Below are positions 135 to 41,683 of a stretch of 64,000 bases of DNA, piece by piece. The notes beneath the pieces are model-generated. The model did no database searches. It worked only from the letters and a program-made list of their open reading frames with translations, and was not told where the DNA came from. The stretch lies in IMG/VR virus record IMGVR_UViG_3300032007_000006, positions 185,360-249,359 of that record; one strand, given 5' to 3'. Every line of letters starts with the position of its first letter. Position 1 is the first letter of the stretch. The DNA comes from a virus. Taxonomy: Duplodnaviria; Heunggongvirae; Uroviricota; Caudoviricetes. Made by a program: the position numbers and the translations under genes.

Positions 135-3134
135 CTAGGCTACATCCTTTTCCTTTGCAGATTCAATGGCTTCATGCTCCACTTCATCAGTATAGAACTG
201 CCTCTGTGGGAAGTCAAATGTCCTTCTTACAGGATGCCAGTTGGCAACCGTGGTCAAAAATCCAACCACCCTTGTCATATGATTGACGCAAGGCCTTCCG
301 CAGGTAGGACAGGTTTCTCCACCAACCCAGAGGTGCTTTTCTTCACAGCAATTGAGCAGATAGTTGATGGCCCAGTAGACAACGCCACATTTGGCCGCAT
401 ACTCCATCAGGGAGACCATCACCTTAGGATCCTTTATCTTCTCGCCAACATTGATGTGGGCAATGGCTCCACCAGAGAGGTGACGATCAAAGAGTCCCTG
501 CAGCTTCAGTCTGTCAAGCATGTCGGCCTTGACAATGAGTGGAATGAACTGATTGCTGTATAATGGAACGCCAATGTCATAGCCAAGCATCTTGTCCTTG
601 CTGGCCAGCTTGATTGCGGAAGTCTCTGCAGGAACCTGCTCTACATTGTGGGGAGCCTTGTACTGAGCTTCGGCGCGGTCGATCCATTTGTTGATGTTTT
701 TGAGAATCCTTAGAACAAGATTCTGTCCTTCTTCCGTGAGAATGTCCTTGCCAAGCAATTGAACGGCTTCATTGATTCCAACAACTCCAAATGTGCTGTA
801 CTGCTTACTGAGATCCATGTAGCCTTGGGTGTAGAGAGGAGCGGCACCAAGTTCAATGCGTTTTCGTACCAGCCGACGCTTGCAGGCATTGATCTTTGCG
901 GCAACAGCATAGATTTCCTCAAGACCTTCCATGAACTTGTCTACATCTCCCTTGGCCTTGTATGCAATGCGAGGAAGATTTGCAGTCACCACGCCAAGAG
1001 AGCCAATCTTGGTTGAACCTGCGCCAAAGGAGTTAAAGTATGGATTGTCCTTGTTTGAGCGCAGACGACAGCAGGAAGACAATGTGGACGTGTCTCCGTT
1101 GTATATGTTGATCCAGCCGTATTCAAGATTTGCATTGGCAATAAAGTTGAGGAACTCCTTGTCCTTGATAGAGCCGTCTTCCTCCTTGCAGAAACAGGCT
1201 GTAGTTACAGGGAACGTGATTGGACTTCTGGCCAGCTCCTCATTCATCACTTCAACATATATCTTCTGAAGAAGCTTCACAGTCTCTTTCTTGGCATTGT
1301 AGTCTGGGCAGAGGGAGTCAAGGAAGGTGTCATCATAGAGGGATATATTTGTGAATGCGGACTGATTTCCTCTAAACTCCCAGTTGACCGTGTAGACAAA
1401 TGCAGTCAATCTCTCCTTGATGTACTGCTCTGGGTTGCCAATCACTGTATGGCCATCCATTCCATTTTCAAGCAGAAGGTCTACATAGCGGGAAGCAACC
1501 AACAGAAGATCAGCGAAGCCAGTGGCTCCAAGAGTGGAATTTGCGGCTACTACAACAAACTGCTCAACCTGTCGTAGGAAAGTATCGAGTGATTTTGGTG
1601 GAAATACTCTAATTCGTTTAGAAATGCTGTCCAATCCATTGAATGCAATGTCATTTGTGCTGTAGTTAAAGCAGTTGTGGCCAATTATTCCATTGGTATA
1701 GAATCTGCCACTGGAAGTGGTGATGTCATAGACATACTTGTCGTTGAAATCAACTTCTTCCTTCTTTAAAACATGCATTGTTTCAAAACGACCATCAACT
1801 GCACGTTTCTTGAACAGCACGTCAACATGATCCTTTAGCTTGTAGGACATGTCAACAATGGAGTCATTTTCATCTGGAATAGAAAATGAAACTCTGTACA
1901 TTGGCTGCAGCTGGTCAATACGAGTATTTCCTCTTGCTGGAGCAACGCATGAAGTGCGAACACGATTCATTCCGATTCTAGTTGCAATTTCTGCAATTTG
2001 CTGCACCATCCCAAGACTAATCACGCGAATGTCCACAACGCCAGTATGCTTGTTTACCGTTCCATCAGTATCAATCAAACCAGCAACAAGAGCCTTTAAG
2101 GCATCAGTTTTCCAAATCAGACAGTCGCTTGGAAGTCTTTTGTTGAATGCACGAGTGCCAATGTTGACGGCATGCCAGAGTGCATCTTCCCTATGACCAA
2201 AATCTACAGAACGAACTGAATCTACATCATCAACCTTTCCAGTTGTAATGTTGTCATAAAGTTTTTCTATATGCTCCATGTAGGAACTTTCAAGAATGTT
2301 CTTTTGATGGAGAGTAAGCGTTGTTGGATTAAGGGAACCATCGCCAATCAAGGCTCCAGTAAGATAGGCTCTATTGAAGTCAACATCCATTGCATTTTGC
2401 ACAACATCAGCTGATGCAACGTCACATCCAAGGATTTCATCACCAATTTCAACATCGGAAGCAAACTTTTCGCTTCCATCAGCAAGAATGCAGGGATGAT
2501 CCTCGGTTACGCTAAAAACAGTACCTTTCTTCGTTTCAAAGCGGTACATCTTCTTTTTGTTCTTGTGACGAACTACTCGTTCAAGAGCAACCCATTTTCT
2601 GTCTTCATAGACTTCCAGTTCCAATGGCTTCAAGTCGGCTTCTTCCCAGTCCTCCTTTTTTACAACATAAGCCATGTTTTCAAAGAATAACTGTTCCAAA
2701 GTCATCATTCTAACTTTTTTGCCATCTTTGACAAGAATAGTTGTTCCAGGATGGTATGAATACGGACTGGCAATATCCGTAAAGTCGTTGATATAGATGT
2801 CGCCAGTCAACTGAGCTTCAATGATGTCATTTGCCGTTTCAAGACCATAGGCCTTCTTCAGCTCCTTCCACAGCAGAAAGTAGCTGTTGTAGCGTTTCAG
2901 TGGCTTTGGAAGTTCAAAGTTGTACTCAATGCCAGTCTTTGCCACGACATTGGCATTTGCATCAACAGACACGTCGGCTGATGGACCATTGGAGTTGAAG
3001 AAGTTCTTGCTGAACTTGTTCAAGTCCATCTGCTCTCCTATTCCATCAAGCGTGAACAGCTCCTTTCCATATTTCGACCAGAGATGCATCATCAAAGTGT
3101 CGAAGTCTGTGTCCCAAGAAATGCGAAAGTACAT
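135..3134 (-). CDS. nrdD: Anaerobic ribonucleoside-triphosphate reductase NrdD (class III RNR) interrupted by an intein; 999 aa
   Basis: C-terminal glycyl-radical motif TRVVGFL and the Zn-ribbon CPTCG..C; the length excess over ~600-aa NrdD is explained by the intein; GGAGGA SD before the ATG at 3134. Confidence 0.85.
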   Translation of the reverse strand: MYFRISWDTDFDTLMMHLWSKYGKELFTLDGIGEQMDLNKFSKNFFNSNGPSADVSVDANANVVAKTGIEYNFELPKPLKRYNSYFLLWKELKKAYGLETANDIIEAQLTGDIYINDFTDIASPYSYHPGTTILVKDGKKVRMMTLEQLFFENMAYVVKKEDWEEADLKPLELEVYEDRKWVALERVVRHKNKKKMYRFETKKGTVFSVTEDHPCILADGSEKFASDVEIGDEILGCDVASADVVQNAMDVDFNRAYLTGALIGDGSLNPTTLTLHQKNILESSYMEHIEKLYDNITTGKVDDVDSVRSVDFGHREDALWHAVNIGTRAFNKRLPSDCLIWKTDALKALVAGLIDTDGTVNKHTGVVDIRVISLGMVQQIAEIATRIGMNRVRTSCVAPARGNTRIDQLQPMYRVSFSIPDENDSIVDMSYKLKDHVDVLFKKRAVDGRFETMHVLKKEEVDFNDKYVYDITTSSGRFYTNGIIGHNCFNYSTNDIAFNGLDSISKRIRVFPPKSLDTFLRQVEQFVVVAANSTLGATGFADLLLVASRYVDLLLENGMDGHTVIGNPEQYIKERLTAFVYTVNWEFRGNQSAFTNISLYDDTFLDSLCPDYNAKKETVKLLQKIYVEVMNEELARSPITFPVTTACFCKEEDGSIKDKEFLNFIANANLEYGWINIYNGDTSTLSSCCRLRSNKDNPYFNSFGAGSTKIGSLGVVTANLPRIAYKAKGDVDKFMEGLEEIYAVAAKINACKRRLVRKRIELGAAPLYTQGYMDLSKQYSTFGVVGINEAVQLLGKDILTEEGQNLVLRILKNINKWIDRAEAQYKAPHNVEQVPAETSAIKLASKDKMLGYDIGVPLYSNQFIPLIVKADMLDRLKLQGLFDRHLSGGAIAHINVGEKIKDPKVMVSLMEYAAKCGVVYWAINYLLNCCEEKHLWVGGETCPTCGRPCVNHMTRVVGFLTTVANWHPVRRTFDFPQRQFYTDEVEHEAIESAKEKDVA
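1674..2759 (-). mobile_element. Intein inside nrdD carrying a LAGLIDADG homing endonuclease; the N-terminal boundary is approximate
   Basis: Block A-like SYHPGTTILVKDGKK, Block B TEDH, two LAGLIDADG motifs (LTGALIGDGSL and LVAGLIDTDGTV), C-terminal IIGHN followed by +1 Cys (CFNYS). Confidence 0.65.
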
Positions 3135-3171: not shown

Positions 3172-3180
3172 TATTTACAA
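3172..3180 (-). promoter_or_regulatory. TTGTAAATA late-promoter-like motif about 40 nt upstream of the nrdD ATG
   Basis: Same 9-mer recurs upstream of other genes in this window (see findings). Confidence 0.35.
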
Positions 3181-5072: not shown

Positions 5073-6155
5073 CTAGAAAAAGTTGTCTATAGAAGAGGAA
5101 CTGAATGTGGCGTCTTCAACTATTTCACATTTTTCATCTAAAAAACTGAATTTTCTATCTTCCACTTCAAGAAATGAAGTGTCATTCATGCATTCAGTTT
5201 CGTAGACTAAAGGAACCTTCCTGCAGAAGGAATCATCAACCACAAGAGGACAGGTATAGGTCCAGTTGACGCAATGATGAACCCTTCTAAAGGTTACGCC
5301 CATGCACGATACGGACACGGAAGACGGACATAGAACAGCAGAAGGAATGCTTTTGACATATGTACCAAAAGTCCGATACATGTCTGTAATTCCACCACTG
5401 GCCTGTTGAGTTGGAGTCTGGTCTATTGATGGCATGTCAAGAGTCAACGAAAGCTGACCACGCTTTCCATTCAGAATGTAGGCATTCACGTCATCATTGA
5501 ACCGTCCATAATATCTGTATTCCTTTCTGGTGTCTCCAAAAAAGACGTTCATGGCCTTCCATCGGTAGGAATATCTGGCCATGACTGAACCAACGCCGCC
5601 GATGAAGTCTCCAATCTGTGAAAAGGCCGTAATGTACAGCCATGGAGCAGAATTGAGAAGATGGAAATACTTGAGACAGCAATGATCAAAAACAGACAGT
5701 CCTTCGCTTTCTTCACGAGCAAAAAGGGCGGCCCTGATTCTTGGAAAGAATGCTTCTCCAGTGCTCTTCTTTATCATGGCCCTACGCATGACCACGTCAA
5801 CGTAGTCGTCATCCAGAACAATGAACCATCGGTATCCAAGTTCTCTTGCAATGCGGAACTGTTCATTTCTGGCCCATACTGTAGCCTTTCTTGAAAGGCT
5901 TTTTCCCCAGTAGCAGTCCACAAGATCCATGTCATATCGCTTTTCCGCTTCTTCCTTGCTGAAGACATAGATGGAGTCATCTCCAAACGTCTTTCTGTAT
6001 TCGCGAATGGTTGGATCATCATCTGAAAGGACAACTACACGCTTTGCATGAGAATTGACCTCATCCAGAAGCGCCCAAGTATGAGTCTTTAGAAATTCAG
6101 GACGAGTATAGGACAGAATCAATATAACATAGTCTTTAGGACTTTGTGGTCTCAT
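5073..6155 (-). CDS. GT-A-like (DxD) putative glycosyltransferase with a Cys-rich C-terminal region, paralog 1
   Basis: N-terminal VILILSYTRPEF (GT2-like), VVVLSDDD, and YWGKS..TVWARN.F.IA..GYRWFIVLDDDY; start taken at MRPQSPKDYV with a GAGGAG SD. Confidence 0.5.
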   Translation of the reverse strand: MRPQSPKDYVILILSYTRPEFLKTHTWALLDEVNSHAKRVVVLSDDDPTIREYRKTFGDDSIYVFSKEEAEKRYDMDLVDCYWGKSLSRKATVWARNEQFRIARELGYRWFIVLDDDYVDVVMRRAMIKKSTGEAFFPRIRAALFAREESEGLSVFDHCCLKYFHLLNSAPWLYITAFSQIGDFIGGVGSVMARYSYRWKAMNVFFGDTRKEYRYYGRFNDDVNAYILNGKRGQLSLTLDMPSIDQTPTQQASGGITDMYRTFGTYVKSIPSAVLCPSSVSVSCMGVTFRRVHHCVNWTYTCPLVVDDSFCRKVPLVYETECMNDTSFLEVEDRKFSFLDEKCEIVEDATFSSSSIDNFF

Positions 6156-6546
6156 CTTTGCTGTACTCCTCAATGCTTCTGTCCGAAATGTCACGCTTTA
6201 GCACCTTGTCTATATGTCCAGCACCTTTGACTACTCCATATTCAACGGCCTTGTCCAAATCAATGAGAACCATTGCCGACTTTTCCAGCAAATGCTTCAT
6301 TGCTGAACTGGCTTTTGTTGCATACCATTGAGCAGTCTTTCCATAATGAAACTTGATCCATCTGGACGCACACAGCTTCAAAAACGTTGCTTCCGACTTT
6401 GAAATTTCTCCTTTTTTCAAGGAACTGTTGATATAGTTTAAAAGTTCAACATAATTGTCCACGTCAACGCAATCGTTTAGAGAATAGTCGGCGTCAGATG
6501 GTTCAAAAGGAGGAATTGCAAATTTTGTAGTATACTTTTCTTCCAT
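6136..6546 (-). CDS. Hypothetical protein (136 aa), partner-protein paralog B
   Basis: Paralog of the 4521-5063 product; its 3' end overlaps the start of the GT-like gene. Confidence 0.6.
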   Translation of the reverse strand: MEEKYTTKFAIPPFEPSDADYSLNDCVDVDNYVELLNYINSSLKKGEISKSEATFLKLCASRWIKFHYGKTAQWYATKASSAMKHLLEKSAMVLIDLDKAVEYGVVKGAGHIDKVLKRDISDRSIEEYSKDETTKS

Positions 6547-6558: not shown

Positions 6559-7626
6559 TCAGCAGAAGTCATTGATTGACGCTTCTTCAAGAGACATGCT
6601 TTCAACAACCTCACACTGTCTGTCCATAATCCTGTATTTTTTCTTCCCGCTGGGAACAGTTTTATTATGCATGCATTCCGACTGAAAGTCAAGAGGTTTT
6701 TCTCTGCACAGAGATTCGTCCACAACCATTGGACAGGTAGTGGACCATTTAATAAGATGATGCACCCTAGGAACAACTGAACCCATGCATGAAACTGATA
6801 CCGATGATGGACATGCAACTACAGAAGTCAAGCTCTTGATATAAGTTCCAAATGTCTTGTAGATATCAGTTATTCCACCAGCAGATTTCTGCGTTGGCTC
6901 CTGATTTATTACCACCTGCATCATGGTCAAGGACATTTGGCCAAGTTTTCCATTCAGAATGTATCCATTAACGTCATCATTCAATTTTCCGTAGTATCGG
7001 TACTCCTTTTCCGTATCACAGAAAAAGACGTTCATTGCCTTCCATCGGTACGGTATCCTGGTAAAAATTGAATTTATTCCACCAACAAAGTCTCCACACT
7101 GGGCCGTGGCCGTCACATGCATCCATGGCGCTGAATTGAGAACATTGAAATACTTGACACAGCACTTGTCAAATATTGACCCATGTTCATCGGAAGGAGC
7201 GAAAATAAGTTCCTTGAACGTAGGGAAAAACTCGGTCTTGTCATCATTGCGGATCATCTTCTTCCGCATGACAATTTCTCTGTAGTCATCATCCAGTACA
7301 ATGAACCATCTGTATCCAAGACTTCTCGCAATCTCAAATTGAGCATTTCTGGCCCATACTGTGGCCTTTCTTGTAAGACTTTTTCCCCAGTAGCAGTCTA
7401 TCGTGTCTATGTCATACTTTCTTTCAATTTCTACTTTGCTGAAAACTGCTATATTCTCCTTTCCATACATTGTTTCATATTCAGGAATGGTTTTGTCGTC
7501 ATCAGACAGAACAACAACTCTTCTGGCCTTGGACTTGACCTTGTCCAGAATATGCCATGTATGACTCTTTAAAAATTCTGGACGTTCATGAGAAAGTATC
7601 AAAATGACGAAGTCCTTGCAGTCCAT
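6559..7626 (-). CDS. GT-A-like (DxD) putative glycosyltransferase with a Cys-rich C-terminal region, paralog 2
   Basis: Roughly 50% identical to the 5073-6155 product across its length, including the LDDDY and C-terminal CPSSVSVSCMG..HH...W..TCP motifs. Confidence 0.5.
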   Translation of the reverse strand: MDCKDFVILILSHERPEFLKSHTWHILDKVKSKARRVVVLSDDDKTIPEYETMYGKENIAVFSKVEIERKYDIDTIDCYWGKSLTRKATVWARNAQFEIARSLGYRWFIVLDDDYREIVMRKKMIRNDDKTEFFPTFKELIFAPSDEHGSIFDKCCVKYFNVLNSAPWMHVTATAQCGDFVGGINSIFTRIPYRWKAMNVFFCDTEKEYRYYGKLNDDVNGYILNGKLGQMSLTMMQVVINQEPTQKSAGGITDIYKTFGTYIKSLTSVVACPSSVSVSCMGSVVPRVHHLIKWSTTCPMVVDESLCREKPLDFQSECMHNKTVPSGKKKYRIMDRQCEVVESMSLEEASINDFC

Positions 7627-9300: not shown

Positions 9301-9945
9301 CTAGAAAGTAAAGCGGAAGGCAAGCTGAGTGTCAATGCCGCGAATCTCGGCCTTGGTGTGGCGCTTTTCAATGCGGCCAAGGTCAACATAGCGGGCAGAC
9401 AGGTCAATGCCGAAGTTTTCAGTAACGGGAACATAGAAGCCGCCACCAGCATTCCAAGCGAAGGTCGTGGCGCTGTGAGTGCCAGAGAACCAGTTGGCGC
9501 CAAGGCCAGCGGTGATGTAGGGCTTCACATAGGGAACAGTGTCAAAGTCATATGCGGCGTTGAAGAAGACAGTGTGGCTGTCAAAGTCAACGGAAGTGCG
9601 ATCAAGATTGATCTTGGTGTTGCCAGTGTAGAGATATTCAACTTCCAGACGGAAGGGAAGGTCATACTTCGGACGGAAATTGTAGCCTACGGAGAGACCA
9701 GTGTTCCACTGGTTGGTGTAGCCGTGACGCCAGGACTGCGTGAGTGCGCCACGCACGTCATCCTGCATCTGGAAAGTCACGCCGACTTTTGGTGCAATGT
9801 AGAAGCCCCATACGTTGGAAGCAGGTTCAGCAGAAACTGCGGCAGGCTGAGCATTCTTTTCCCAGCAGTAGTTCTCGGCCTGAGCGGCCACGGAAGTGAA
9901 AACAAGAGTGGCCACGATGGCCAGAACACTAAAAATGCGTTTCAT
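9301..9945 (-). CDS. Phage-encoded outer-membrane beta-barrel protein (OmpW/OmpX/Ail-Lom-like), 214 aa
   Basis: Signal peptide MKRIFSVLAIVATLVFTSVAAQA; alternating amphipathic beta-strands; C-terminal ...LAFRFTF with a terminal aromatic. Confidence 0.7.
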   Translation of the reverse strand: MKRIFSVLAIVATLVFTSVAAQAENYCWEKNAQPAAVSAEPASNVWGFYIAPKVGVTFQMQDDVRGALTQSWRHGYTNQWNTGLSVGYNFRPKYDLPFRLEVEYLYTGNTKINLDRTSVDFDSHTVFFNAAYDFDTVPYVKPYITAGLGANWFSGTHSATTFAWNAGGGFYVPVTENFGIDLSARYVDLGRIEKRHTKAEIRGIDTQLAFRFTF

Positions 9946-10045
9946 TATGCAAATCTCCTATAATGATATGTTGTTCATTGTCCTGCTCGGTTAAAGATAT
10001 TGCACTTCAATCAAGCAAAGGTATTTATGAGTGAAAAATCTTGTA

Positions 10046-11846: not shown

Positions 11847-11913
11847 GCTGTTCCTCCTTGAACGAGAATTGATAAGAGCACTTTAGCCTATTCCGAAAGG
11901 GCTGTCAACCCCG

Positions 11914-13517: not shown

Positions 13518-14336
13518 TTATGACTTGAACTTCTTTAGTTTAGTCACTGGAAATATCTTTGTAGCATCTCTCAAAATCTTAGTCAAATCGGCACGTCTGT
13601 ACTTCACTGTGCGGCTGATGACCTTCTTCTGAGCGACCTTGCCAATGTAGGCATTGACTGCTATTGCCCATTCAAAGTCAAAAGTCTTCGAGTTGTTGAA
13701 TCCATTTGGATGATGACGCATCAACCATGCCATATGATCGCTGTCGCCAGTCAAGGCTACTTCAAAAACAATGGTTCGAGACTTGTTTACAAACAAATGG
13801 GAAACCCAGGTCTCCTTCCAGTAAGATTTCATGTTGATCACGTCAACCACAGTAGAGGCCTTTTCAATATGAGTGAATGGCTCTCCAAAAAAGTTTGTCA
13901 AATGAGAAACGCATCCAAAAAAGTCTATTTTCTTGAGACATTTCAGAATGGCCTCATAAATTGGACCACGAGTCTTGAGAATGTCCTGTCTAAATGTCTC
14001 TCTATTGGCATCTCTTGCAGCCCTTGAAGTTTTAAACGTCTGACCAGCCTGTCTATAGGCCTGTGCATTTCCACGCATGCTTCCAGTTCCTGCTGAAGCG
14101 CCAGCAACAGTCTTGACAGACTTGCCAATATATTGCTTGAGAACGTCATTCGCGGCATTAATGTCCTGCATCTTTTCAAGGCTGCCACCTCTGTCTGGAT
14201 GGTTTGTCAATGCAAGCTTCTTGTGAAGCTGACGCAGTTCAATGGCCGTTTTTGGAAACTCCGAGAGTCCAAAGATTTTCAGTGCGGTCATTGGATCCAT
14301 TATGGCTTCTTCAAGCCACTCTTTAAAGCTTTTCAT
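13518..14336 (-). CDS. J-domain (DnaJ-like, HPD) protein with an N-terminal capsid-targeting-sequence-like peptide MKSFKEWLEE (272 aa)
   Basis: LHKKLALTNHPDRGGS is a canonical J-domain helix II plus HPD; the N-terminus matches the T4 CTS consensus MKTYQEFIAE; paralog of the 14392-15213 product. Confidence 0.7.
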   Translation of the reverse strand: MKSFKEWLEEAIMDPMTALKIFGLSEFPKTAIELRQLHKKLALTNHPDRGGSLEKMQDINAANDVLKQYIGKSVKTVAGASAGTGSMRGNAQAYRQAGQTFKTSRAARDANRETFRQDILKTRGPIYEAILKCLKKIDFFGCVSHLTNFFGEPFTHIEKASTVVDVINMKSYWKETWVSHLFVNKSRTIVFEVALTGDSDHMAWLMRHHPNGFNNSKTFDFEWAIAVNAYIGKVAQKKVISRTVKYRRADLTKILRDATKIFPVTKLKKFKS

Positions 14337-14391: not shown

Positions 14392-15213
14392 CTACTTCAT
14401 TGGAATTCCGTAATATGCTGTCTTTATCTTTGATGGAGAAAGCAGCTTTTTTGGATCCTTTAAAATGGAAAGGTCTACACTTTTATATTTTTTCTTTCTT
14501 AAAACAACTTTCTTGTTTGAAGCCCTGCCTTTATAGAAATCAACGGCGATTGCCCATTCAAAGTCAAAATTCTTTGAATTTTCAAATCCATTGGAAGTAT
14601 TACGCATGCGCCAGGCCATGTGATCCGTATCGCCAGTTAATTCAATGCCAAAAACTTCCATTCCAGACTTGTCTGTAAAGACATAGCGAATCCAAGGCTC
14701 CTTGGCATGATCCTTCATTTTAACAATTTCTTCAACAGTGGATATTTTTGTAAGCGTATGTTCAAATTTTATACCCAATACCTCTGAAAAGTGCTTTGCG
14801 AATACAAAAGTAGGAAGTTTTTCAAGAAAAGCCGCAATCGCTCTATATATTGGTCCATGCGTCTTGAGAATGTCCTTCTCAAATTCGTCACGATTTGCAT
14901 TGGCTCTGGCTCTTGAGGTTTTAAACGTTTCTCCAGCCTGCCTATATGTTTGAGATGCGCTGGTCCTTGTTCCACTTCTAGCAATGCTCTTGACGGACTT
15001 GCCAATCCACTGCTTCAATACGTCGTTAGCCGCATTGATGTCCTTCATCTTTTCAAGACTTCCACCACGATCAGGATGGTTTGTCAAGGCAAGCTTCTTA
15101 TGCAAGTTTCTTAATTCAGTTGCAGTCTTTGGAAATTCGGAAAGACCAAAAATTTTCAACGCTGTTTTTGGATCCATAATGGCTTCAATAAGCCAATCTT
15201 TGAATGATTTCAT
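14392..15213 (-). CDS. J-domain (HPD) protein with N-terminal CTS-like MKSFKDWLIE (273 aa), paralog
   Basis: LHKKLALTNHPDRGGS; preceded by an AGTAAATAA motif 20 nt upstream. Confidence 0.7.
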   Translation of the reverse strand: MKSFKDWLIEAIMDPKTALKIFGLSEFPKTATELRNLHKKLALTNHPDRGGSLEKMKDINAANDVLKQWIGKSVKSIARSGTRTSASQTYRQAGETFKTSRARANANRDEFEKDILKTHGPIYRAIAAFLEKLPTFVFAKHFSEVLGIKFEHTLTKISTVEEIVKMKDHAKEPWIRYVFTDKSGMEVFGIELTGDTDHMAWRMRNTSNGFENSKNFDFEWAIAVDFYKGRASNKKVVLRKKKYKSVDLSILKDPKKLLSPSKIKTAYYGIPMK

Positions 15214-15222: not shown

Positions 15223-15798
15223 TTAGATCAAATTATTTACTTTAAAATGATGATAGAGCATTGCATGGGAATCAACAACGTCGGAAACTGGACTGGATGA
15301 ATTTTTTCTATGCAGAAGACCAGCCATGTCCATGTCATACTTCTGCCTATAGGCCTCAACCATTGCATCCTTATCTGCATTGCCTTTTCCAGCGAAAGTC
15401 TTCTTTACAGTCGTTGGAGGATACTTGTGAAACTCTATTCCTATGGAATGCATCAAAGTTTTTAACGTTCCAGTGCATTCTGCTATGTTGAAAACCAGAC
15501 CAGACGCTCCAAGGGCATAGTCCTCCATGGCAACAACCTTAACGTCCTCAAGCACCATAATGGAAATGAACCAGTCGGCCAGAACAAAATAGCGTTCTTC
15601 TGGACATTCAATATTAAACTGCGTTTGAGGAAATACATTGGGAACGTCCCATTCCTTTCTCAGCAGTTCTTCCTTCTTTGAAACGTTGTTCTGGTTGAAC
15701 CAGTATCTGCATGTCTTGTGTTCAAATGGACCATCATCGTCATCATAAATGCACAAGGCTGGACAGTTGATTGAATAGTCTATTCCTCCATACACCAT
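15223..15798 (-). CDS. RuvC-like Holliday junction resolvase (191 aa)
   Basis: GIDYS (catalytic Asp region), VAMEDYA (Glu region), KKTFAGKGNADKDAMVEA (the KQ.V.G.G.A.K.QV equivalent), DVVDSHAML (DxxD); the ATG MVYGG was chosen because the ORF-track start is a TTG. Confidence 0.55.
   Translation of the reverse strand: MVYGGIDYSINCPALCIYDDDDGPFEHKTCRYWFNQNNVSKKEELLRKEWDVPNVFPQTQFNIECPEERYFVLADWFISIMVLEDVKVVAMEDYALGASGLVFNIAECTGTLKTLMHSIGIEFHKYPPTTVKKTFAGKGNADKDAMVEAYRQKYDMDMAGLLHRKNSSSPVSDVVDSHAMLYHHFKVNNLI
15233..15241 (-). promoter_or_regulatory. AGTAAATAA late-promoter-like motif upstream of the CTS J-domain gene
   Basis: Variant of the recurring TGTAAATA motif. Confidence 0.3.
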
Positions 15799-15856
15799 AT
15801 GGCCTCCATAAAAGAAGAGGAGGAGCAATAGCTCCTCCTTCAACCTCTAGACTAAT

Positions 15857-17404
15857 TTAGTCCTTGTTCATCCATATGTCAATGACCGTCTTGACCTTTT
15901 CCCATATCCGCTTTTCGCTAATTCGCCCTTCGTATTCCATCATGTACCATTCCTCAATTCTTTTCATGATGTTCTTCACGTCAAAGTTCTTGTTCATGAA
16001 CATCATGCGGACATTGGCATCAACAATGTCCCTATACTGCTTTTCAAGAAAGGCCATTATCATGCTGGGAGTGGACGAAGCGAACCAGTTCCTTACAAAT
16101 GTCTTGGCTTCATCTTCATCTTCATCGTTTATTCCCTTTCCAATGACTTTGAAGAACTCCCTTACAAGATCATCCAGTTCTTCTACACTGTCTTTTTCGG
16201 CAGATTCACTAGTCTTTTCAGTGTTCCAGTTGATTTTCCTGCTGGTTGGAGAAAGATCGAACCCAAACACTTCAGTCTGACAAACGTCTCCATCTTCATC
16301 GAGATACTTCACGACATAGACATTGGAACCGTAGTCAAAAGCCATCACCTGAACAACGTTTCCGTTGTAGAGTTCCGCATACTCTCCAGATTCAAATTTC
16401 CTTTCAGGCTCATTTCCATCGGAAATACGCTCAAGCAGATGATCCTTCTTGATCCACCATTCAACAGGTTCATACCCATCAAAGAAGCGGATCTTGTATG
16501 GATATCCAATTTCATCATTGGAATCAACTACAATCACGCGACCAATGACATTCTCTTCATCGGAATTTTCAAAGTCATATTCCTCAAGATTGGCTTTAAT
16601 CAAGTCTCCAACGCCAATTTCAGGAGTAAATTCTTCATCCTTCCAGACGGTTCTTTCCAGAGGAGCATTGATTTCCGAAACGACCTTGTAGCGGCAGCAT
16701 CTGGCCTTCGCATTGCCATAGTCATTCGGAATGGAAACAACGTCAGCCGGATTAATCTTGACCAGAACAAGCCTGTCGCCTAGACCAGAAAAAGACTTGA
16801 CATAGGAATAGGCGCAGAAGTGAAGTCCAGAAGAGCAGGTGTTGTTGGGATCATCATCAACTTCATTGCGTGGCATTTCCACTATAGCTCCAATGGAATT
16901 GTCAAACTTGCCAGTATGCTTATCCTTGAAATTGCCAGAAACTACCTTGTAGGCCATGATATCGCCATCTTCGGCGATTGTGAATCCACCTTCCTCCTGA
17001 CATGCTTCAATGAAAGCCCAAAGCTGATTTCTAATGCGATAGGAAGGATTTTCCCTCATCTTCCGCACGAAATTCACCATTGGATCAAGAGGCAGTCCTT
17101 CATCATGCATGGACTGTATCTGCCTGCAGAGAGAGCCATATATCGGTTCCCCGTCAATGTAGATGGTGTCGCTTCCGAAGCTGATGCCAGAACCTTCAAT
17201 ATTGGCCTTTTCGCACCACTCGCGAATTTCTTCATTATTCTTCACGTTAAGGACTTCCTTCAAGTCCTTCCAAGGAGCCTTTTTCTTGATAAGTTCAAGA
17301 ATTTTTTCACGCTTTTCGGAATCAGAATCGCCAATAAGCCAGGTTCTTCCTTCTCCACACACAAACAGCATGCTGCCAGTAGACATGTAGGTATATTCTT
17401 CCAT
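15857..17404 (-). CDS. rIIB: rIIB-like protein (about 280-aa rIIB core plus an about 230-aa C-terminal extension), 515 aa
   Basis: Core GLHFCAYSYVKSF...LVKINPADVVSIPNDYGNAKARCCRYKVV resembles the conserved rIIB C-terminal block as I recall it; AAGGAGG SD before MEEYTYM. Confidence 0.45.
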   Translation of the reverse strand: MEEYTYMSTGSMLFVCGEGRTWLIGDSDSEKREKILELIKKKAPWKDLKEVLNVKNNEEIREWCEKANIEGSGISFGSDTIYIDGEPIYGSLCRQIQSMHDEGLPLDPMVNFVRKMRENPSYRIRNQLWAFIEACQEEGGFTIAEDGDIMAYKVVSGNFKDKHTGKFDNSIGAIVEMPRNEVDDDPNNTCSSGLHFCAYSYVKSFSGLGDRLVLVKINPADVVSIPNDYGNAKARCCRYKVVSEINAPLERTVWKDEEFTPEIGVGDLIKANLEEYDFENSDEENVIGRVIVVDSNDEIGYPYKIRFFDGYEPVEWWIKKDHLLERISDGNEPERKFESGEYAELYNGNVVQVMAFDYGSNVYVVKYLDEDGDVCQTEVFGFDLSPTSRKINWNTEKTSESAEKDSVEELDDLVREFFKVIGKGINDEDEDEAKTFVRNWFASSTPSMIMAFLEKQYRDIVDANVRMMFMNKNFDVKNIMKRIEEWYMMEYEGRISEKRIWEKVKTVIDIWMNKD

Positions 17405-17598: not shown

Positions 17599-17720
17599 TG
17601 CCTTCTCCTAAAAAATGTCTGGCAGGGATGGGCTGATTTGAACAGCCGAGTGACGGAGTCAAAGTCCGTTGCCTTAACCAGCTTGGCTACATCCCCACAT
17701 TCTGCATTTAATGCAGTTCC

Positions 17721-22734: not shown

Positions 22735-22986
22735 CTACATCATTCTATGGCCATTCCCAGTCATGTTTTTGCAGATTGCAATAAGAGAATTCAAGGCCAT
22801 TCCCAAAGATTCAATTCTCTGCTCCATTTTGTCCATTCTCTGCTCAATCTCATTCAGTCTGGAAAATATTACATCCTTTTCTTCCTTTCTCTTGTTTTTG
22901 AGAAGCAGTCTCTTCTTTGCATTTCCATATCCAACTTCATCATCATTGATCAATGATCCATCACTCGCTCTTTTCCATTGATCCAT
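22735..22986 (-). CDS. Hypothetical small coiled-coil protein (83 aa)
   Basis: ORF with a GAAGGAG SD. Confidence 0.35.
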   Translation of the reverse strand: MDQWKRASDGSLINDDEVGYGNAKKRLLLKNKRKEEKDVIFSRLNEIEQRMDKMEQRIESLGMALNSLIAICKNMTGNGHRMM

Positions 22987-23563
22987 CGGCATTATCTCCT
23001 TCATTTAGGAAGTCTTCAATAGTTTTAGGCCTGTTCTTCTTGGCTTCTTCCAGCTTCTCTCTTTGAGCCTTTGAATATCCCTTTCTATAGAAAGGAGCCT
23101 TCTTTGGTCCCTTTGCTATCGTGTCCATATAGGACTTGTTTCTGGCATTGATGGCATTGTATTTTGAATTTTCTTCATCATCCGTTTCAATTGGAATGTC
23201 ATAGAGAACTTCAAGCTGCCTTCGATATTCCAGATGGGTATTCAGTTTTTCCTTTTCAGTTTTGATTCTGGCCACAAAGGCATTGTATGCAATCTGCGTA
23301 TAGAACGCAAATGGATTCTGTGACTTTTCTGGATTAAAATTGCGACAGAATTGTATGCAGGCCAGAATTGCATCCGAAATCATTTCCTGCTTCCAGGTAT
23401 ATCCAGCAAATCTGCCAGATCTGGCCAGATTTTCGCATATTCTCATGATAGCCAGTGCTATCTTGTCTGGTATCTTTTCCTGACCAGATTCGCGCCACTT
23501 TACAATCTCTTCATAAAATTCCTTATTATTAACATAATTATGTGATACTCGCTTTCCTGCCAT
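22961..23563 (-). CDS. 55: Late-transcription sigma factor, T4 gp55 homolog (200 aa)
   Basis: HNYVNNKEF, ALAIMRI, AGYTWKQEMISDAILA, NPFAFYTQIAYNAFVARIKTEKEK align block-by-block with T4 gp55 (YNYVNNKEL ... GLAIM ... SGYT.SWKQEMI ... [21 protein letters not shown]). Confidence 0.85.
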   Translation of the reverse strand: MAGKRVSHNYVNNKEFYEEIVKWRESGQEKIPDKIALAIMRICENLARSGRFAGYTWKQEMISDAILACIQFCRNFNPEKSQNPFAFYTQIAYNAFVARIKTEKEKLNTHLEYRRQLEVLYDIPIETDDEENSKYNAINARNKSYMDTIAKGPKKAPFYRKGYSKAQREKLEEAKKNRPKTIEDFLNEGDNADGSMEKSE

Positions 23564-23622: not shown

Positions 23623-24117
23623 TTAGTCTGTTGGAATTTTCACTCTGTCCATTTCATAGGTCTTTTGAAGAAACTTGGATACAAGTTCTGGAAATTTTTG
23701 ATAGACAAACTTCTTTCCCTTTATCATTCTACCTATCATGCCAAACGTTGAAGTTGGACGAGTTGGAAGAGTCCATATGGTATCATGTTCATCTACGAAA
23801 ATAATGCAGTTCTGCTTGTATTTTCTTCCATAATAGTAGAAAAAGCGTTTCAACATTTCCAAATCTATGTCATCTGAAGGAAAGGACACCATGCATTCAA
23901 TCTCTTCAAGATTTTCAGCGTACTTTCCCGTAATTTTCAGTATGTCTAGATCTAATTCATCCTTCATGGCCCTTCTAAGAAACTTTGTATTTGTCAAATT
24001 TTGACTGTATGGAAGTCCACCTTGCCAGGCTGAATTGATAATAAATCTTGTTCCATGATTCCATCTGGCCTTAAACTCATAGTCATAAACTTCATTAAGC
24101 AGAATATCATTCATCAT
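23623..24117 (-). CDS. Hypothetical protein (about 164 aa)
   Basis: ORF only. Confidence 0.4.
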   Translation of the reverse strand: MMNDILLNEVYDYEFKARWNHGTRFIINSAWQGGLPYSQNLTNTKFLRRAMKDELDLDILKITGKYAENLEEIECMVSFPSDDIDLEMLKRFFYYYGRKYKQNCIIFVDEHDTIWTLPTRPTSTFGMIGRMIKGKKFVYQKFPELVSKFLQKTYEMDRVKIPTD

Positions 24118-25234
24118 AGACACGTCCACTCTTCATTGATATTGTGCTTGCACCAAGAATGGATATGAGATTTGCCGACTTGTTCAAGGCATAGTCAATT
24201 TTAGAAACCATTGTTCTGTCATTTGACCATATCTGAACAACATGGCGTCCATCCTGCAGCTGTGTGGATGCGGCTTCAAGCAGTCCAGATGCTCCCATGG
24301 CCTGACATGACAGCACAACAGAAGACCACTCTGCATTGGAAGCAATTTCGGCCTTGACCTTCAAGGCCGCGGCGCATCTGTTTTCATCATACTCAATTCC
24401 AACAACACCATCTTGATTAAGATACAAGATTCTTTCCGTATCCGGCTCTTCATTAATCATTTGCGTAAGCAGAGACAGAGTGGCTGGAGAAGCGTCATAA
24501 ACAAGATCGCCATTGAGGCTTGAATCAACGGCTTTTGCCGAGGCCGCCTTGTAGTTGTCAATAATCTGCGTATTCTCTACGATTTCAAGCAGTATTCTGG
24601 AATGAATGAATGTTGCACGATAGACAATGAAAGTGCCAGGAAGAAGAAGGGTGCTTTTTGGACTGCCAATGTCAGACCATTCCACATTTGGATAAATGGA
24701 ATTGTTCACAAAGCTAAAATCATTTCCAGCATAGGAAACATGCATTTCCTGCAAGGCCTTAATTGATATCAGCTTTTCAGAAAACCATGATGGATCTGGA
24801 CTGGCGGCAAGAGTAATAAGAACGTCACTTCTAGCATCAACGCACTGCACATCTGGAGAGTTCTTTGTTACCTTGACTTCTCCAGTGCTGGTTGAAATAG
24901 ATGCATCCGATGTTGTAAAGACTGCCTTTTTGACTACGCTGTCGGCTGAAATCTCGCGAACGTTCATGTCCACTTCTTCAGCATCATAGTCCGGAAGAAC
25001 TCCCCATTTGACTCCATCAAGATATTTCTTGTCGGTGGACTCCATAAATCCAAACACGTTTGAATATGTTGGATCATTTGGAGCAACCGCAGGATGGTCA
25101 ACAATGTTGCATACGTCAATAATTCTGTTCAACATGTTGAGCCAAGAGTGAACAGTGTCGCTTATCTTGATAGGCTCCAGCATTCTGGCTGCAGTCAACT
25201 TGTCTTCAATCAACGCTCTTGTTTGTTCATTCAT
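24107..25234 (-). CDS. Hypothetical protein (375 aa)
   Basis: ORF only. Confidence 0.45.
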   Translation of the reverse strand: MNEQTRALIEDKLTAARMLEPIKISDTVHSWLNMLNRIIDVCNIVDHPAVAPNDPTYSNVFGFMESTDKKYLDGVKWGVLPDYDAEEVDMNVREISADSVVKKAVFTTSDASISTSTGEVKVTKNSPDVQCVDARSDVLITLAASPDPSWFSEKLISIKALQEMHVSYAGNDFSFVNNSIYPNVEWSDIGSPKSTLLLPGTFIVYRATFIHSRILLEIVENTQIIDNYKAASAKAVDSSLNGDLVYDASPATLSLLTQMINEEPDTERILYLNQDGVVGIEYDENRCAAALKVKAEIASNAEWSSVVLSCQAMGASGLLEAASTQLQDGRHVVQIWSNDRTMVSKIDYALNKSANLISILGASTISMKSGRVYDE

Positions 25235-25300
25235 TCCTTTTGCTCTTCTTCGTCTATGCAGTCAAAATATTTATTTTATATGCTGGAGCCTATCTAAATG

Positions 25301-25646: not shown

Positions 25647-26129
25647 CTACTTTTCTCCAGTAGATCCAAAGCCGTTGCTGCCTCTTTCTCTGTCATTGTT
25701 TCTCCTCCAGTATTCTTCTTCCGTCATCTCTTCAATTTCTGTCATTCCGATTGGAATAAGCATAAACTGAGCGATTTTGTCGCCAGGACATATTTTCGCT
25801 GGCGCATCTCCAATGTTGACAAGATGAATGCCAAGTTCGCCAGTGTATCCAGAATCAACAAGCTTTGCACCAAGAGTGAGTTTCTTTTTAGTTGCAACTC
25901 CAGACTTGTTCACGCCCAGAAGAGCCCATCCCTTTGGCACTCCAACTCTTACTCCAGTTTGAACGAGATAGTCCTTTCCTGGAAGAAGTGTCACTTCATC
26001 CATGTCCTCTGGTGCAAAAAAATCAAAACCGGCATCATCGACATGCGCCTTCACTGGAATTTTTCCCTTCCTTCCTTCAATAAGGCAGACTTGAAGTCTT
26101 TCCTTGACATCTTTTGCCGTAAATTCCAT
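25647..26129 (-). CDS. dut: dUTP diphosphatase (dUTPase), 160 aa
   Basis: All five dUTPase motifs: DAGFDFFA, GVNKSGVATKK, KLVDSGYTGELG, DKIAQFML, RERGSNGFGSTG. Confidence 0.88.
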   Translation of the reverse strand: MEFTAKDVKERLQVCLIEGRKGKIPVKAHVDDAGFDFFAPEDMDEVTLLPGKDYLVQTGVRVGVPKGWALLGVNKSGVATKKKLTLGAKLVDSGYTGELGIHLVNIGDAPAKICPGDKIAQFMLIPIGMTEIEEMTEEEYWRRNNDRERGSNGFGSTGEK

Positions 26130-29058: not shown

Positions 29059-29103
29059 GCGTTTTCTTCAGGGAAATAAATATTTTGATGCTGCTTATAA
29101 AAA

Positions 29104-29451
29104 ATGAGCCTGCCTAGTTTTGCTGACTACATGAATCTCTTGACCACCTTGGAATCTATTGTTGAAGAATCTACATACATAGAAGATGTGCTGGAAGCAA
29201 TGACTTCCAGCGGAATAGGAGTAGCGTCTGTCACTACATCGGACATAGGTGGCGTGGTGCTTCCATTAGGCACTTTGGCTCGAAGAAGTCCTATTGATGA
29301 AGAGGGATTAAAGAACAGCAAGGAAGCACAGGACTTTCTGTCTAAACATATTAGACAGTACAAGTCTATCTGGAAAAGTGCTGGAGAAATGGTGGCAAAA
29401 AGCGTTGCCGAACATTTATTTCTGAAAAAGCCAATATTGTCGGCAGTCTAG
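29104..29451 (+). CDS. Hypothetical protein (115 aa)
   Basis: ORF at the start of a plus-strand block; N-terminus MSLPSFADYMN is weakly CTS-like. Confidence 0.4.
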   Translation: MSLPSFADYMNLLTTLESIVEESTYIEDVLEAMTSSGIGVASVTTSDIGGVVLPLGTLARRSPIDEEGLKNSKEAQDFLSKHIRQYKSIWKSAGEMVAKSVAEHLFLKKPILSAV

Positions 29452-29457: not shown

Positions 29458-29994
29458 TTGATGAAAAAACTAACTACAAGAGTTAAGAATAGGTATGATT
29501 CTTCCTACAACTGGAAAACAATCAATCCAGTGCTTCTGGAGGGAGAATTCGGCGTAGATGAATATGGACGTGTAAAAGCTGGAGATGGCACAACAGCATG
29601 GAACAGTCTGCCATATGTAATGGATTCATTTCGTCTGGAGCCACTTTACAGCGTTGACTACGATGATGGAATAGTTCCAGTTTCTCCGCTGTCTGATCAG
29701 GTTCTCTATATTCTTGCGGAAGAAAATCTAGAACTTGACTTTGAGAAGGTATGGATTGATGGCGAAGTTGACAAGCTGTACTTCACGCAAAAGAAGATAT
29801 ACATTGAAAATATTGGAGAGACTAGGATTACGCTTGGCATTAGAAATGCTGAATGGGCCAACGACATTAATTCTCCAGAATGGGGAGATCCACAGATGCA
29901 TCTCTACATTCTAGCCACATGGATTGGTGGAAGAATCATTCTTGACATAGTGGACAATGATCAATTGGCCGACAATGTAGCAAACATGCCGTAA
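29458..29994 (+). CDS. Tail-fibre-associated protein with a conserved N-terminal module of the prophage hyaluronidase (HylP) / tail-fibre type, 178 aa
   Basis: RYDSSYNWKTINPVLLEGEFGVDEYGRVKAGDGTTAWNSLPY matches the R.D....W...N.VL..GE.G.E.....K.GDG.T.W..L.Y module. Confidence 0.45.
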   Translation: MMKKLTTRVKNRYDSSYNWKTINPVLLEGEFGVDEYGRVKAGDGTTAWNSLPYVMDSFRLEPLYSVDYDDGIVPVSPLSDQVLYILAEENLELDFEKVWIDGEVDKLYFTQKKIYIENIGETRITLGIRNAEWANDINSPEWGDPQMHLYILATWIGGRIILDIVDNDQLADNVANMP

Positions 29995-30049: not shown

Positions 30050-31096
30050 CTAGAATGGATTGTTGGTTGAAAAGGCGTTTGGCTCGTAAGTGTCATTGCA
30101 GTAGATGCCAAGAAGATTCTGAGGCGTTCCTGCATTGCCAGAATTGTTGTAGTATGTGATGTTGAATGTGCCCTGCTTTGGAAGATCGGCAAGGGTATAT
30201 TCTGATATATTGGACTTGTTTGACCATAATGGCGTAAGATGGTGTCTTGGACTGTCTTCAAGAGTATCATCTGCTGATTCCAGATGGCCATAGAGGTGAA
30301 TGTAGTTTCCTGCTGGCTTTATTCCAGTGATTTGGCCTATGACTGCCGTAGTGAAGAAGTCAAATCTATTGATGGCCTGAATAAGCCATGGACATTCCTG
30401 CACTACAAGGGCAATGGCCTTCATTGCCGTATTGCGAGCATTGAACAGCCATCTGGAGCAGTCTTCACCACGAACAGTAGTATATGGAACGCCATAGGAA
30501 TTGAATATAGTTTTGGCGCTTTCAACCATCAAACTGATGTCCTGGACAATGTTTTCTGCACTGACTGATCCATGCGAACCAGAAGCTACAGAACCATTTG
30601 CATTCTGCATAATGAATGGATCAGCAGACTGCACTCTAAGGGCGTCTTGGGCTGAAAGAGTTAGTCCGCTCTTTATTTTGGTTGATGCGTTGTTGATAGG
30701 AGTCTGAAGTCCCTTCTCCGATGAAAGGAGATGATTGTATACTGGATGTTTTGTGGTTGATCCTTGTACAGTAGGAACATTTTCAGATGGCCAGTATGGC
30801 GTTTTTCCAAGAGTAAACAATGGAGAATTGGAAGCTTTGAAGAGAGTTCCATCAAGCGTTGAAGCCGATTCATAGAATGCAGTTAATTCTCTAATGGCTT
30901 TTGTCGTGTTGCGCTTAATGTTCTCGTCTTCCTGAGCATTTGTTGTGGATGGCTTGAATGAATCTACCAGAAGATGCCAGGAACTTCTATTGCGTCTAAA
31001 ATATTCAATTCTCCAGAGAAGTTCCTTGAAGGCAAGGGGAAGTTCCATCTTTACCTGATATTTTCCATTCAGCTGCTTTTCGTAGTATGTTGCCAT
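30050..31096 (-). CDS. Hypothetical protein (348 aa), probably structural (tail-fibre module)
   Basis: ORF convergent with the tail-fibre-like gene; TTGTAAATA motif 35 nt upstream. Confidence 0.45.
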   Translation of the reverse strand: MATYYEKQLNGKYQVKMELPLAFKELLWRIEYFRRNRSSWHLLVDSFKPSTTNAQEDENIKRNTTKAIRELTAFYESASTLDGTLFKASNSPLFTLGKTPYWPSENVPTVQGSTTKHPVYNHLLSSEKGLQTPINNASTKIKSGLTLSAQDALRVQSADPFIMQNANGSVASGSHGSVSAENIVQDISLMVESAKTIFNSYGVPYTTVRGEDCSRWLFNARNTAMKAIALVVQECPWLIQAINRFDFFTTAVIGQITGIKPAGNYIHLYGHLESADDTLEDSPRHHLTPLWSNKSNISEYTLADLPKQGTFNITYYNNSGNAGTPQNLLGIYCNDTYEPNAFSTNNPF

Positions 31097-31130: not shown

Positions 31131-31139
31131 TATTTACAA
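31131..31139 (-). promoter_or_regulatory. TTGTAAATA late-promoter-like motif upstream of the 30050-31096 gene
   Basis: CATTGTAAATATTTCAG context identical to the copy at 53692-53700. Confidence 0.4.
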
Positions 31140-31390
31140 TGCTAGCCAAGAAAGCGGTCGTTGCTGAAGAATGACCGATGAATTGGCTTCATCGCATATA
31201 AGTAACTGTGCATCGTCAATAGATGTCTATGTACGGAACGCACAAAAGTGACGCCTGCTAGACATGATGCAGTCAGACCTGAAGGATATATGGTTGGAAT
31301 AGAACTTCCGTAAAATCCTCTGGGCGACATCAGAGCAGGAAGTTTCCATTCTTTAGCGACGGAAATAGTTCATATCTATAAGTTTAAGAC

Positions 31391-31480
31391 CATAGAAAAC
31401 GGGAGGGACACAAGTCCCTCCCGTCTAGGAGAGGAGGTACGCCTCCCGAGGCAGGAGGTGGGACCTCGGGAGGCTCTCAA
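31391..31480. other. GC-rich double hairpin (gggaggg..ccctccc; cctcccgagg..cctcgggagg) in an AT-rich intergenic region
   Basis: Two adjacent perfect stems; local GC far above the window average. Confidence 0.35.
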
Positions 31481-31520
31481 CCCTAGGGCAGCATATATTT
31501 AATGTTGCGAAAAATTTTTC

Positions 31521-31549
31521 TTGACAGATTTCTCCGCATAGACTAGACT
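31521..31549 (+). promoter_or_regulatory. Sigma70-like promoter TTGACAGA-N16-TAGACT
   Basis: -35 TTGACA, 17-bp spacer, -10 TAGACT, 52 nt upstream of the SPFH gene. Confidence 0.5.
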
Positions 31550-32729: not shown

Positions 32730-32887
32730 CATGCACCAGGAAATTTGCTATTCTGCAAAGACTTCGGCAAGGGGGCTTTCGTTTAATGAGGCCTTTGCCG
32801 AAGTCTTGAATCAGTCTCCTGAGGAGATTGAAAAGGAAGAAATCGACTCCTTCATTTCTGAAGCATTTGAAACGTTCATGAAAATGG

Positions 32888-41681: not shown

Positions 41682-41683
41682 AT

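Follow-up and report, generated by a model that had tools for sequence, protein, structure and literature searches.

The stretch of DNA analyzed here, referred to as the window, comprises 64,000 nucleotides (nt) of a virus of the class Caudoviricetes (IMG/VR record IMGVR_UViG_3300032007_000006, positions 185,360 to 249,359). It carries genes for a sheath-like protein, a tail tube protein (phrog_45), a neck protein (phrog_679, Pfam T4_neck-protein), an endolysin and a homolog of the T4 late sigma factor gp55. The hexamer TAAATA is found in front of the sheath, tube, neck and endolysin genes and of an operon ending in a tail-fibre-like protein, and also in front of the genes for an outer-membrane beta-barrel protein and NrdD and of several open reading frames (ORFs) without database matches. 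A 9-mer containing this hexamer, TTGTAAATA, had been proposed as a gp55-dependent late promoter (the original prediction). This reading is backed by the enrichment, the orientation and the conservation of the core, by the class of genes behind it and by the presence of the gp55 homolog. We consider it very probable that the TAAATA sites are T4-type late promoters of a deep-branching T4-like phage, which are read by its own gp55 homolog.

The 9-mer was compared with 100 dinucleotide-preserving shuffles of the window. The exact 9-mer TTGTAAATA occurs six times (3172-, 31131-, 39847+, 53692-, 56557+ and 61780+) versus 0.30 expected copies, and none of the 100 shuffles reached six. No extended identity is shared among the flanks of these copies. 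As a motif, TTGTAAATA with up to one mismatch was rejected, with 25 copies versus 19.2 expected and 9 of 100 shuffles reaching 25; the one-mismatch variants are mostly intragenic. Because its one-mismatch neighbourhood is not enriched, the 9-mer is the wrong description of the signal. It is over-specified: the true signal is the hexamer TAAATA, and TTGTAAATA is its commonest spelling. At all nine places for which the 9-mer or a variant had been listed, the core does lie upstream of a start codon. The distances from the motif 3' end to the ATG (37, 20, 34, 21, 23, 21, 21, 20 and 32 nt, in the order of that list) agree with the claimed 20-45 nt. One of the listed variants, 49975-49983(-), reads CTGTAAATA with a single mismatch as claimed, and two others are shifted by a single base. 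One of these, listed as 53731-53739(+), lies at 53730-53738 and reads ATGTAAATA, so that its single mismatch is right and its register wrong; the other, listed as 15233-15241(-), lies at 15234-15242 and reads AAGTAAATA, with two mismatches and not one. Ten more TAAATA sites were absent from the list (10022-, 25268-, 29077+, 31496-, 38570-, 39824-, 40732+, 43567+, 54170+ and 57719+). They share the invariant core and differ in the bases ahead of it.

With merely 19 copies on both strands versus 26.7 expected, TAAATA is not frequent in the window; GTAAATA occurs 11 times versus 3.9 expected. The copies are strongly oriented: 18 of 19 aim at the start of an ORF 19-76 nt downstream and the remaining one at a conserved small structured RNA. 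A check for intergenic enrichment, as suggested together with the original prediction, was run and revealed TAAATA as the top hexamer of oriented upstream zones. The zones from -90 to -1 make up 5.2% of the strand-positions and hold 16 of the 19 copies (P=1e-18, rank 1 of all hexamers), followed by the Shine-Dalgarno hexamer TAGGAG (1e-11). Two of the three copies outside of these zones belong to genes for which the start of the longest ORF was called too far upstream, and the third would drive the non-coding RNA. After refinement of the start codons, TAAATA is promoter-like in 18 of 19 copies, versus 12-31% for 14 hexamers of the same composition. Across seven relatives, 34 of 42 copies are promoter-like, versus 11-40% for same-composition permutations, and five of the eight misses are promoters of the small RNA. 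All six positions of the core are effectively obligatory, because none of the 18 single-substitution variants is enriched upstream.

The remark that several genes with a capsid-targeting sequence (CTS) sit behind the motif holds as well. Six proteins of the window show T4-like capsid-targeting N-termini (MKSFKDWLIE, MKSFKEWLEE, MKSFSTYLAE, MTSFQKWLTE, MNTFNEYIFE and MKGYIEWLNE), in which positions 4 and 7 are aromatic, position 8 is L or I and position 10 is E. The same N-terminal pattern was reported for the capsid-targeting sequence of T4 and its cleavage site (PMC9026906). Four of the six CTS-like genes are located directly behind TAAATA and the other two are second in such an operon. Their consensus is M-K/N/T-S/T/G-F/Y-x-x-W/Y-L/I-x-E, and no function is annotated for the mature parts. 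It is likely that these are packaged or ejected internal proteins, which are cut after E10.

TAAATA was not found in front of the early-type genes, among them rIIA, gp44, UvsY and the genes for an HD hydrolase, an RNA-binding protein, a RuvC-like protein and a Band-7 protein. These are instead preceded by TTGACA-N16-18-TAnnnT promoters, the second part of which often reads TAGnAT or TAGACT. The genes for gp44/62, gp47 and gp55 likewise have no TAAATA, and sigma-70-type promoters are present. The endolysin gene carries both promoter classes. The two predicted promoter classes split the genes of the window by function, as in T4.

For the flanks, TAAATA was numbered as T4 positions -11 to -6, so that the preceding base is -12. 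At this position, the 19 sites of the window show G in 58% (11/19), A in 21%, T in 16% and C in 5%, and G is present in 18 of 30 sites of relatives. Position -13 shows a weak preference for T only. On the other side, T is found at -5 in 63-70% of sites (12 of 19 in the window); positions -5 to -3 are 63-84% A+T versus a background of about 58%, which is a modest effect. No -35 element was detected: the position matrix from -31 to -14 reaches a maximum of 0.37 bit in the window and of 0.28 bit in the 30 sites of relatives.

The source phage has no close cultured relative. When 12 kb of the window were compared by megablast with 50,697 phage records, no match was obtained, and a search of viral contigs with the sheath-like protein gave no related locus. 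Relatives were obtained via homologs in protein databases and the metagenomic contigs which encode them. In these, the sheath-like protein is 48-99% identical, and for a 967-amino-acid (aa) protein the values are 44% and 96%. These contigs, which include one of 384 kb and one with a GC content of 52%, share synteny with the window. The best identities to cultured phages are 30-46% (gp55 32-46%, clamp loader about 41-43%, neck protein about 30%). We regard the source phage as a member of an uncultured, undescribed and deep-branching T4-like lineage.

Conservation was compared at 13 sites, namely those of the sheath, tube, neck, 128-aa, 348-aa, 967-aa and 100-aa genes, the two 115-aa genes at 43592 and 29104, the MKSFSTYL and MNTF genes, the endolysin gene and the small RNA. 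TAAATA is kept at 13 of these 13 checkable sites in relatives with flanking proteins of 44-70% identity, whereas the flanks drift, and the conservation of the core spans relatives of 41-52% GC. The TT prefix of the 9-mer is variable; at the neck promoter, the three bases ahead of the core are TTG, TTG, CCG, TTG and ATG in five genomes. The base at -12 tends to stay specific for the gene: G in 5 of 5 genomes for the tube, T in 8 of 8 for the small RNA, T in 3 of 3 for the endolysin and C in 4 of 5 for the sheath. As to the promoter unit, the original prediction was right in equating the TAAATA core with part of the T4 -10 element and wrong in taking the 9-mer as the unit. Because the TT prefix is not conserved among orthologous promoters, the unit predicted to be functional is (G>A,T,C)TAAATA, which corresponds to -12 to -6 of T4, rather than the 9-mer.

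The presumed reader of the motif, a gp55 homolog of 200 aa, was identified where the original prediction had placed it. It matches phrog_234 (late sigma transcription factor, E=5e-41) and chain F of PDB 7D7C, which is T4 gp55 (E=9e-22). A global alignment gives 43% identity to T4 gp55, and the C-terminus of the homolog contains a DFLxE motif aligned to SLDFLYEAND of T4. Cryo-electron microscopy of the T4 late complex revealed that gp55 flips the non-template bases -12, -9 and -8 into pockets, where A-12 stacks on Y97, A-9 contacts N13 and H95, and A-8 contacts T99 (PMC7892883). Of the pocket residues, N13, L54, F86 and T99 are kept in the homolog, and Y97, H95 and R57 are changed to F, F and S. 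This pattern appears to suit a reading of -12 that is altered and looser, with the AAA run still read as in T4. A preferred G adds a third state at this position to the known A of T4 and C of Aeh1, and offers a natural variant for the study of DNA reading by a minimal sigma factor.

The T4 late promoter TATAAATA is an 8-bp element at -13 to -6, which has no -35 element and is followed by an AT-rich segment (PMC2988020). Like in T4, the sites of the window consist of the identical TAAATA at -11 to -6 without a -35 element, are followed by T/A-rich sequence and lie just 5' of genes for virion, lysis and internal proteins. The gp55 homolog has a sigma-region-2-like core and the DFLxE tail, and the clamp-loader genes gp44 and gp62 are present in the window and in relatives. 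Unlike in T4, where A at -12 is nearly invariant, G prevails at this position and T at -13 is weak; the exact TATAAATA has zero occurrences in the window, and many leaders are short and without Shine-Dalgarno sequence. Position -13 is loosely defined in RB49, KVP40 and S-PM2, and the Aeh1 motif CTAAATA carries C at -12 (PMC1524935). The promoters described here resemble those of Aeh1 in the invariant TAAATA, the lineage-specific non-A at -12 and the loose -13 (PMC1524935, PMC2988020). They differ in that G and not C is preferred at -12, in the weaker preference and in the gene-by-gene conservation of this base. The jumbo phages vB_PcaM_CBB and GAP32 carry ATAAATA before structural genes and encode a gp55-like sigma factor, with no detected gp33 or gp45 (PMC5259590). 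The present phage is similar to them in being a large phage with a gp55-like sigma factor and, as far as the window is concerned, no detected gp33 or gp45, and with xTAAATA and A/T-rich downstream sequence before structural genes. However, CBB retains A at -12, and the phage analyzed here is not close to any cultured phage.

The distance between motif and ATG is 19-23 nt at 10 of 18 sites (for example in front of the first genes 38586-39800, 39877-40734, 50767-53670, 53760-54062 and 56586-57710) and 26-76 nt at the others. The short spacing implies leaders of roughly 12-17 nt at these 10 sites. A Shine-Dalgarno sequence (GGAG, GAGG or AGGA) is found upstream of 5 of 17 motif-led first genes versus 33 of 56 other genes (Fisher p=0.05, a rough value since the start calls are imperfect). 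The leader of the sheath gene, CTATCTATTTTGCAAAATG, is near-invariant across relatives.

In the mechanism proposed here, the promoter would consist of the obligatory -10-like TAAATA, a preferred G at -12 and a T-rich stretch after the core, with no -35 element. The core of the host RNA polymerase, together with the gp55 homolog of the phage, would recognise this element on the non-template strand during DNA opening. Transcription would start about 6-7 nt downstream and mostly give rise to the very short leaders. By analogy with T4, activation is probably achieved via a sliding clamp that the DFLxE motif at the gp55 C-terminus would tether. Late timing and an involvement of the clamp and of gp33 would be expected as well. 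Such a mechanism is familiar and biologically ordinary for a T4-like phage, and the preferred base at -12 is the one twist.

Some observations weigh against this reading. The base at -12 is usually G, can be any base, and three pocket residues are changed, so that recognition cannot equal that of T4. Neither gp33 nor gp45 was found among about 80 ORFs of the window, which is part of a genome, scanned with PHROGs or Pfam. The gp33 protein is notoriously divergent. NrdD is not encoded by a classical late gene and thus is an exception to the late-gene rule. Furthermore, the sites 38570- and 57719+ are each followed by a terminator-like hairpin, an unusual arrangement for a promoter. The altered -12 preference and the changed pocket residues would also fit a genuine late promoter read by another phage factor, such as a sigma factor, a modifier of RNA polymerase or a phage RNA polymerase encoded outside of the window. 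The genome may be as large as about 380 kb, of which the window covers 64 kb, and some phages of the T4 superfamily have no gp33 and carry extra sigma factors (PMC4621102). However, the TAAATA core is common to every gp55-type late promoter known to date (T4, Aeh1, KVP40, S-PM2 and CBB), the gp55 homolog keeps the RNA polymerase-binding residues, most DNA-pocket residues and the clamp-binding tail, and the window revealed no further sigma factor or RNA polymerase. We therefore regard another reader as very improbable. That the motif recurs by chance in AT-rich intergenic DNA, or through local duplications, is next to impossible in our view. It is a short, AT-rich motif, and the AT content of intergenic DNA exceeds that of coding DNA, but the 14 hexamers of the same composition behave otherwise, the exact 9-mer far exceeds its expected count with copy flanks free of extended identity, and the core is kept at orthologous positions across relatives of different GC content.

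The sites could also be seen as extended -10 promoters of the host sigma-70, in which TTGTAAATAT would be read as TG-n-AAATAT, a weak -10 element with A at -11 and T at -7. The architectural likeness of late promoters to extended -10 promoters was noted in a review on T4 (PMC2988020), T precedes G in 9 of the 11 GTAAATA sites, and T follows TAAATA in 12 of 19 sites. The sequence requirement is different, however. The n of such a promoter would be free, yet TGA/C/GAAATA is located upstream in merely 1 of 21 copies, so that this reading fails: TGAAAATA, TGCAAATA and TGGAAATA together are found once upstream versus 20 times elsewhere, and TGTAAATA 8 times versus once. Membership of the extended -10 class was rejected on the same count for TGNAAATA with N other than T. 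In addition, G is missing from 8 of the 19 sites, TG is not conserved in orthologous promoters, 0 of 20 TATAAT copies lie in the upstream zone, and a separate clear TTGACA-N17-TAnnnT class precedes the early-type genes. We hold this explanation to be very improbable, and the same low probability is given to a role at the RNA level, for example as A/U-rich translation enhancer, S1-binding site or RNA-processing site before starts without Shine-Dalgarno sequence. The tight spacing at 10 of 18 sites and the scarcity of Shine-Dalgarno sequences would suit the latter, but the spacing of the remaining sites is wide, and the 31496 site precedes a structured RNA with intrinsic terminator and no ORF. 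This terminator-ended non-coding RNA, driven by one of the TAAATA sites, was counted for an action at the level of DNA or transcription. Intolerance of any single substitution is typical of a contact between sigma factor and DNA and not of an A/U-rich enhancer, several sites are located directly 3' of terminator hairpins, the usual boundary of transcription units, and the motif is identical to the known gp55 element, with a gp55 gene present. A Bacteroidetes-type TAnnTTTG reading of TAAATATTTTG, judged by eye, was discarded for its misfit in register and since it covers a minority of sites.

TAAATA is of practical use for finding the late genes of this T4-like lineage, which is uncultured, possibly jumbo and has no cultured relative with more than about 46% protein identity. 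Every gene that follows TAAATA would be a candidate for a virion, lysis or packaged (CTS) protein, including the database-unmatched ORFs 24107-25234, 30050-31096 and 50767-53670. All predicted promoters and related features are listed in Table 1.

Table 1. Predicted late promoters, further promoters and associated features in the window (spacing from motif 3' end to ATG; L001 to L012 are loci of relatives)
Feature	Position	Strand	Context
Putative late promoter TTGTAAATA	3172-3180	-	37 nt 5' of nrdD ATG (135-3134)
Putative late promoter TCATAAATA	10022-10030	-	76 nt 5' of outer-membrane beta-barrel gene 9301-9945
Putative late promoter AAGTAAATA	15234-15242	-	20 nt 5' of CTS-like gene 14392-15213 (MKSFKDWLIE); paralog 13518-14336 next
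Putative late promoter AAATAAATA	25268-25276	-	33 nt 5' of 375-aa gene 24107-25234, no assigned function
Putative late promoter AAATAAATA	29074-29082	+	21 nt 5' of 29104-29451, then tail-fibre-like 29458-29994; kept in L001, L003
Putative late promoter TTGTAAATA	31131-31139	-	34 nt 5' of 348-aa gene 30050-31096; GTAAATA kept in L001, L002, L003, L010, L012
Putative late promoter CATTAAATA	31496-31504	-	no ORF; conserved structured RNA of about 95 nt with intrinsic terminator end
Putative late promoter GCGTAAATA	38570-38578	-	55 nt 5' of tail tube gene 37783-38514; leader hairpin 38531-38553
Putative late promoter AACTAAATA	39824-39832	-	23 nt 5' of sheath-like gene 38586-39800; kept in L001-L004
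Putative late promoter TTGTAAATA	39847-39855	+	21 nt 5' of neck gene 39877-40734; divergent from sheath promoter; GTAAATA kept in L001-L004
Putative late promoter AAATAAATA	40729-40737	+	19 nt 5' of 40757-41143; overlaps neck gene stop codon
Putative late promoter GTGTAAATA	43564-43572	+	19 nt 5' of 43592-43939, then SLT transglycosylase gene 43950-44582
Putative late promoter CTGTAAATA	49975-49983	-	23 nt 5' of CTS-like 49388-49951 (MKSFSTYLAE); CTS-like 48825-49379 next
Putative late promoter TTGTAAATA	53692-53700	-	21 nt 5' of 967-aa gene 50767-53670; GTAAATA kept in L007
Putative late promoter ATGTAAATA	53730-53738	+	21 nt 5' of 53760-54062; divergent from 53692 promoter; kept in L007
Putative late promoter AGTTAAATA	54167-54175	+	26 nt 5' of likely endolysin start 54202 (gene to 54774); -12 T kept in L007, L008
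Putative late promoter TTGTAAATA	56557-56565	+	20 nt 5' of CTS-like 56586-57710 (MNTFNEYIFE); reads AAGTAAATA in L007
Candidate late promoter CTTTAAATA, least certain site	57716-57724	+	between stop of 56586-57710 and hairpin 57743-57774; precedes phrog_9915-like gene ending at 59266, the start codon of which is uncertain
Putative late promoter TTGTAAATA	61780-61788	+	immediately 3' of hairpin; 32 nt 5' of 61821-62195 (MKGYIEWLNE)
gp55 homolog, presumed motif reader	22961-23563	-	TAAATA absent upstream
Small structured RNA	31395-31490 (ends approximate)	-	predicted transcript of 31496 promoter; previously undescribed
CTS-like family	13518-14336, 14392-15213, 48825-49379, 49388-49951, 56586-57710, 61821-62195		partial member 40757-41143
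TTGACA-class promoters	11880-11908, 15854-15882	-	
TTGACA-class promoters	31521-31549, 32726-32754, 35720-35749, 41683-41711, 45155-45183, 54084-54112, 59282-59310	+	

The small RNA behind the 31496 promoter has a length of about 95 nt and consists of an outer helix, an 11-bp hairpin, a CUCCUCUCCUA linker and an intrinsic terminator hairpin. The loop of the 11-bp hairpin, UCC(C)ACCUCCUG, is invariant and holds the 16S anti-Shine-Dalgarno octamer CACCUCCU. The RNA is conserved in seven distinct genomes with the same fold in all seven sequences, and both sides change in 8 of 11 pairs of the main hairpin and in 6 of 10 pairs of the terminator stem. Its loci in relatives are L001 18663-18760, L002 19584-19680 and L003 10482-10580, as well as L009, L010, L011 and L012; the promoter CATTAAATA carries T at -12 in all copies. 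Comparison with Rfam by gathering and relaxed scans gave no credible family, the best hit being RAGATH-23 with 25 bits versus a threshold of 92.6. In viral contigs a pattern scan found nothing, and in metagenomes it found four loci. For a long specific target of the loop within the window, only generic Shine-Dalgarno-like matches were obtained.

One speculation is that the small RNA masks Shine-Dalgarno sites of early or host mRNAs. With Y97, H95 and R57 changed to F, F and S, the -12 pocket of gp55 might have become looser or shifted to G. The base at -12 (G for the tube, C for the sheath, T for the endolysin and the small RNA) could serve as a dial of strength or timing, because it is conserved gene by gene. 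Taken together, a relaxed -12 pocket or dial, the leaders poor in Shine-Dalgarno sequences and the anti-Shine-Dalgarno small RNA might form a late translational switch, to which we attribute a small chance. If this were true, the small RNA would mask Shine-Dalgarno sites, and late mRNAs which do not need them would stay translated.

Between the terminator of the small RNA and the next late promoter, the window contains about 230-250 bp (31140-31385), which are missing from L001, L002, L003, L010 and L012, where the two are 20-40 nt apart. At 31215-31319(+), a match to Rfam RF02269, the Helicobacter pylori sRNA HPnc0580, was detected (43.5 bits versus a gathering threshold of 37). It is antisense to an ORF of 62 aa.

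Strong terminator-like hairpins are located at 38531-38553(-) and 57743-57774(+), in the order stop codon, promoter, hairpin and gene (tail tube and phrog_9915-like, respectively). The tube hairpin is kept with compensatory changes in L001-L004. These leader hairpins may act as 5' stabiliser or attenuator.

A phage-encoded outer-membrane beta-barrel protein (9301-9945(-), Pfam OMP_b-brl, 1e-13) implies a Gram-negative host. Its gene has an unusually long leader of 76 nt and a strong Shine-Dalgarno sequence. Two tandem glucosyltransferase-like genes (5073-6194(-) and 6559-7626(-)) belong to phrog_842, beta-glucosyl-HMC-alpha-glucosyltransferase. Together with a dUTPase/dCTP-deaminase-like gene (25647-26129(-)) and a thymidylate-synthase-like gene (60985-61749(+)) they suggest that pyrimidines of the phage DNA are modified, possibly to glucosylated hydroxymethyl forms.

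At 45873-48790(+), a UvsW-type helicase is apparently split: its N-terminal 361 aa (45873-46958) and its C-terminal 314 aa (47846-48790) are encoded on either side of an ORF resembling an endonuclease (46936-47877). In relatives, UvsW is a single protein of 506-519 aa, and the split form may represent an intein or an intron with a homing endonuclease. The small CTS-like protein encoded at 61821-62195 matches the same PHROG (16259) C-terminal region as UvsW. A single tRNA-Gln gene (anticodon TTG) is located at 17620-17696(-), between rIIB and a small ORF.

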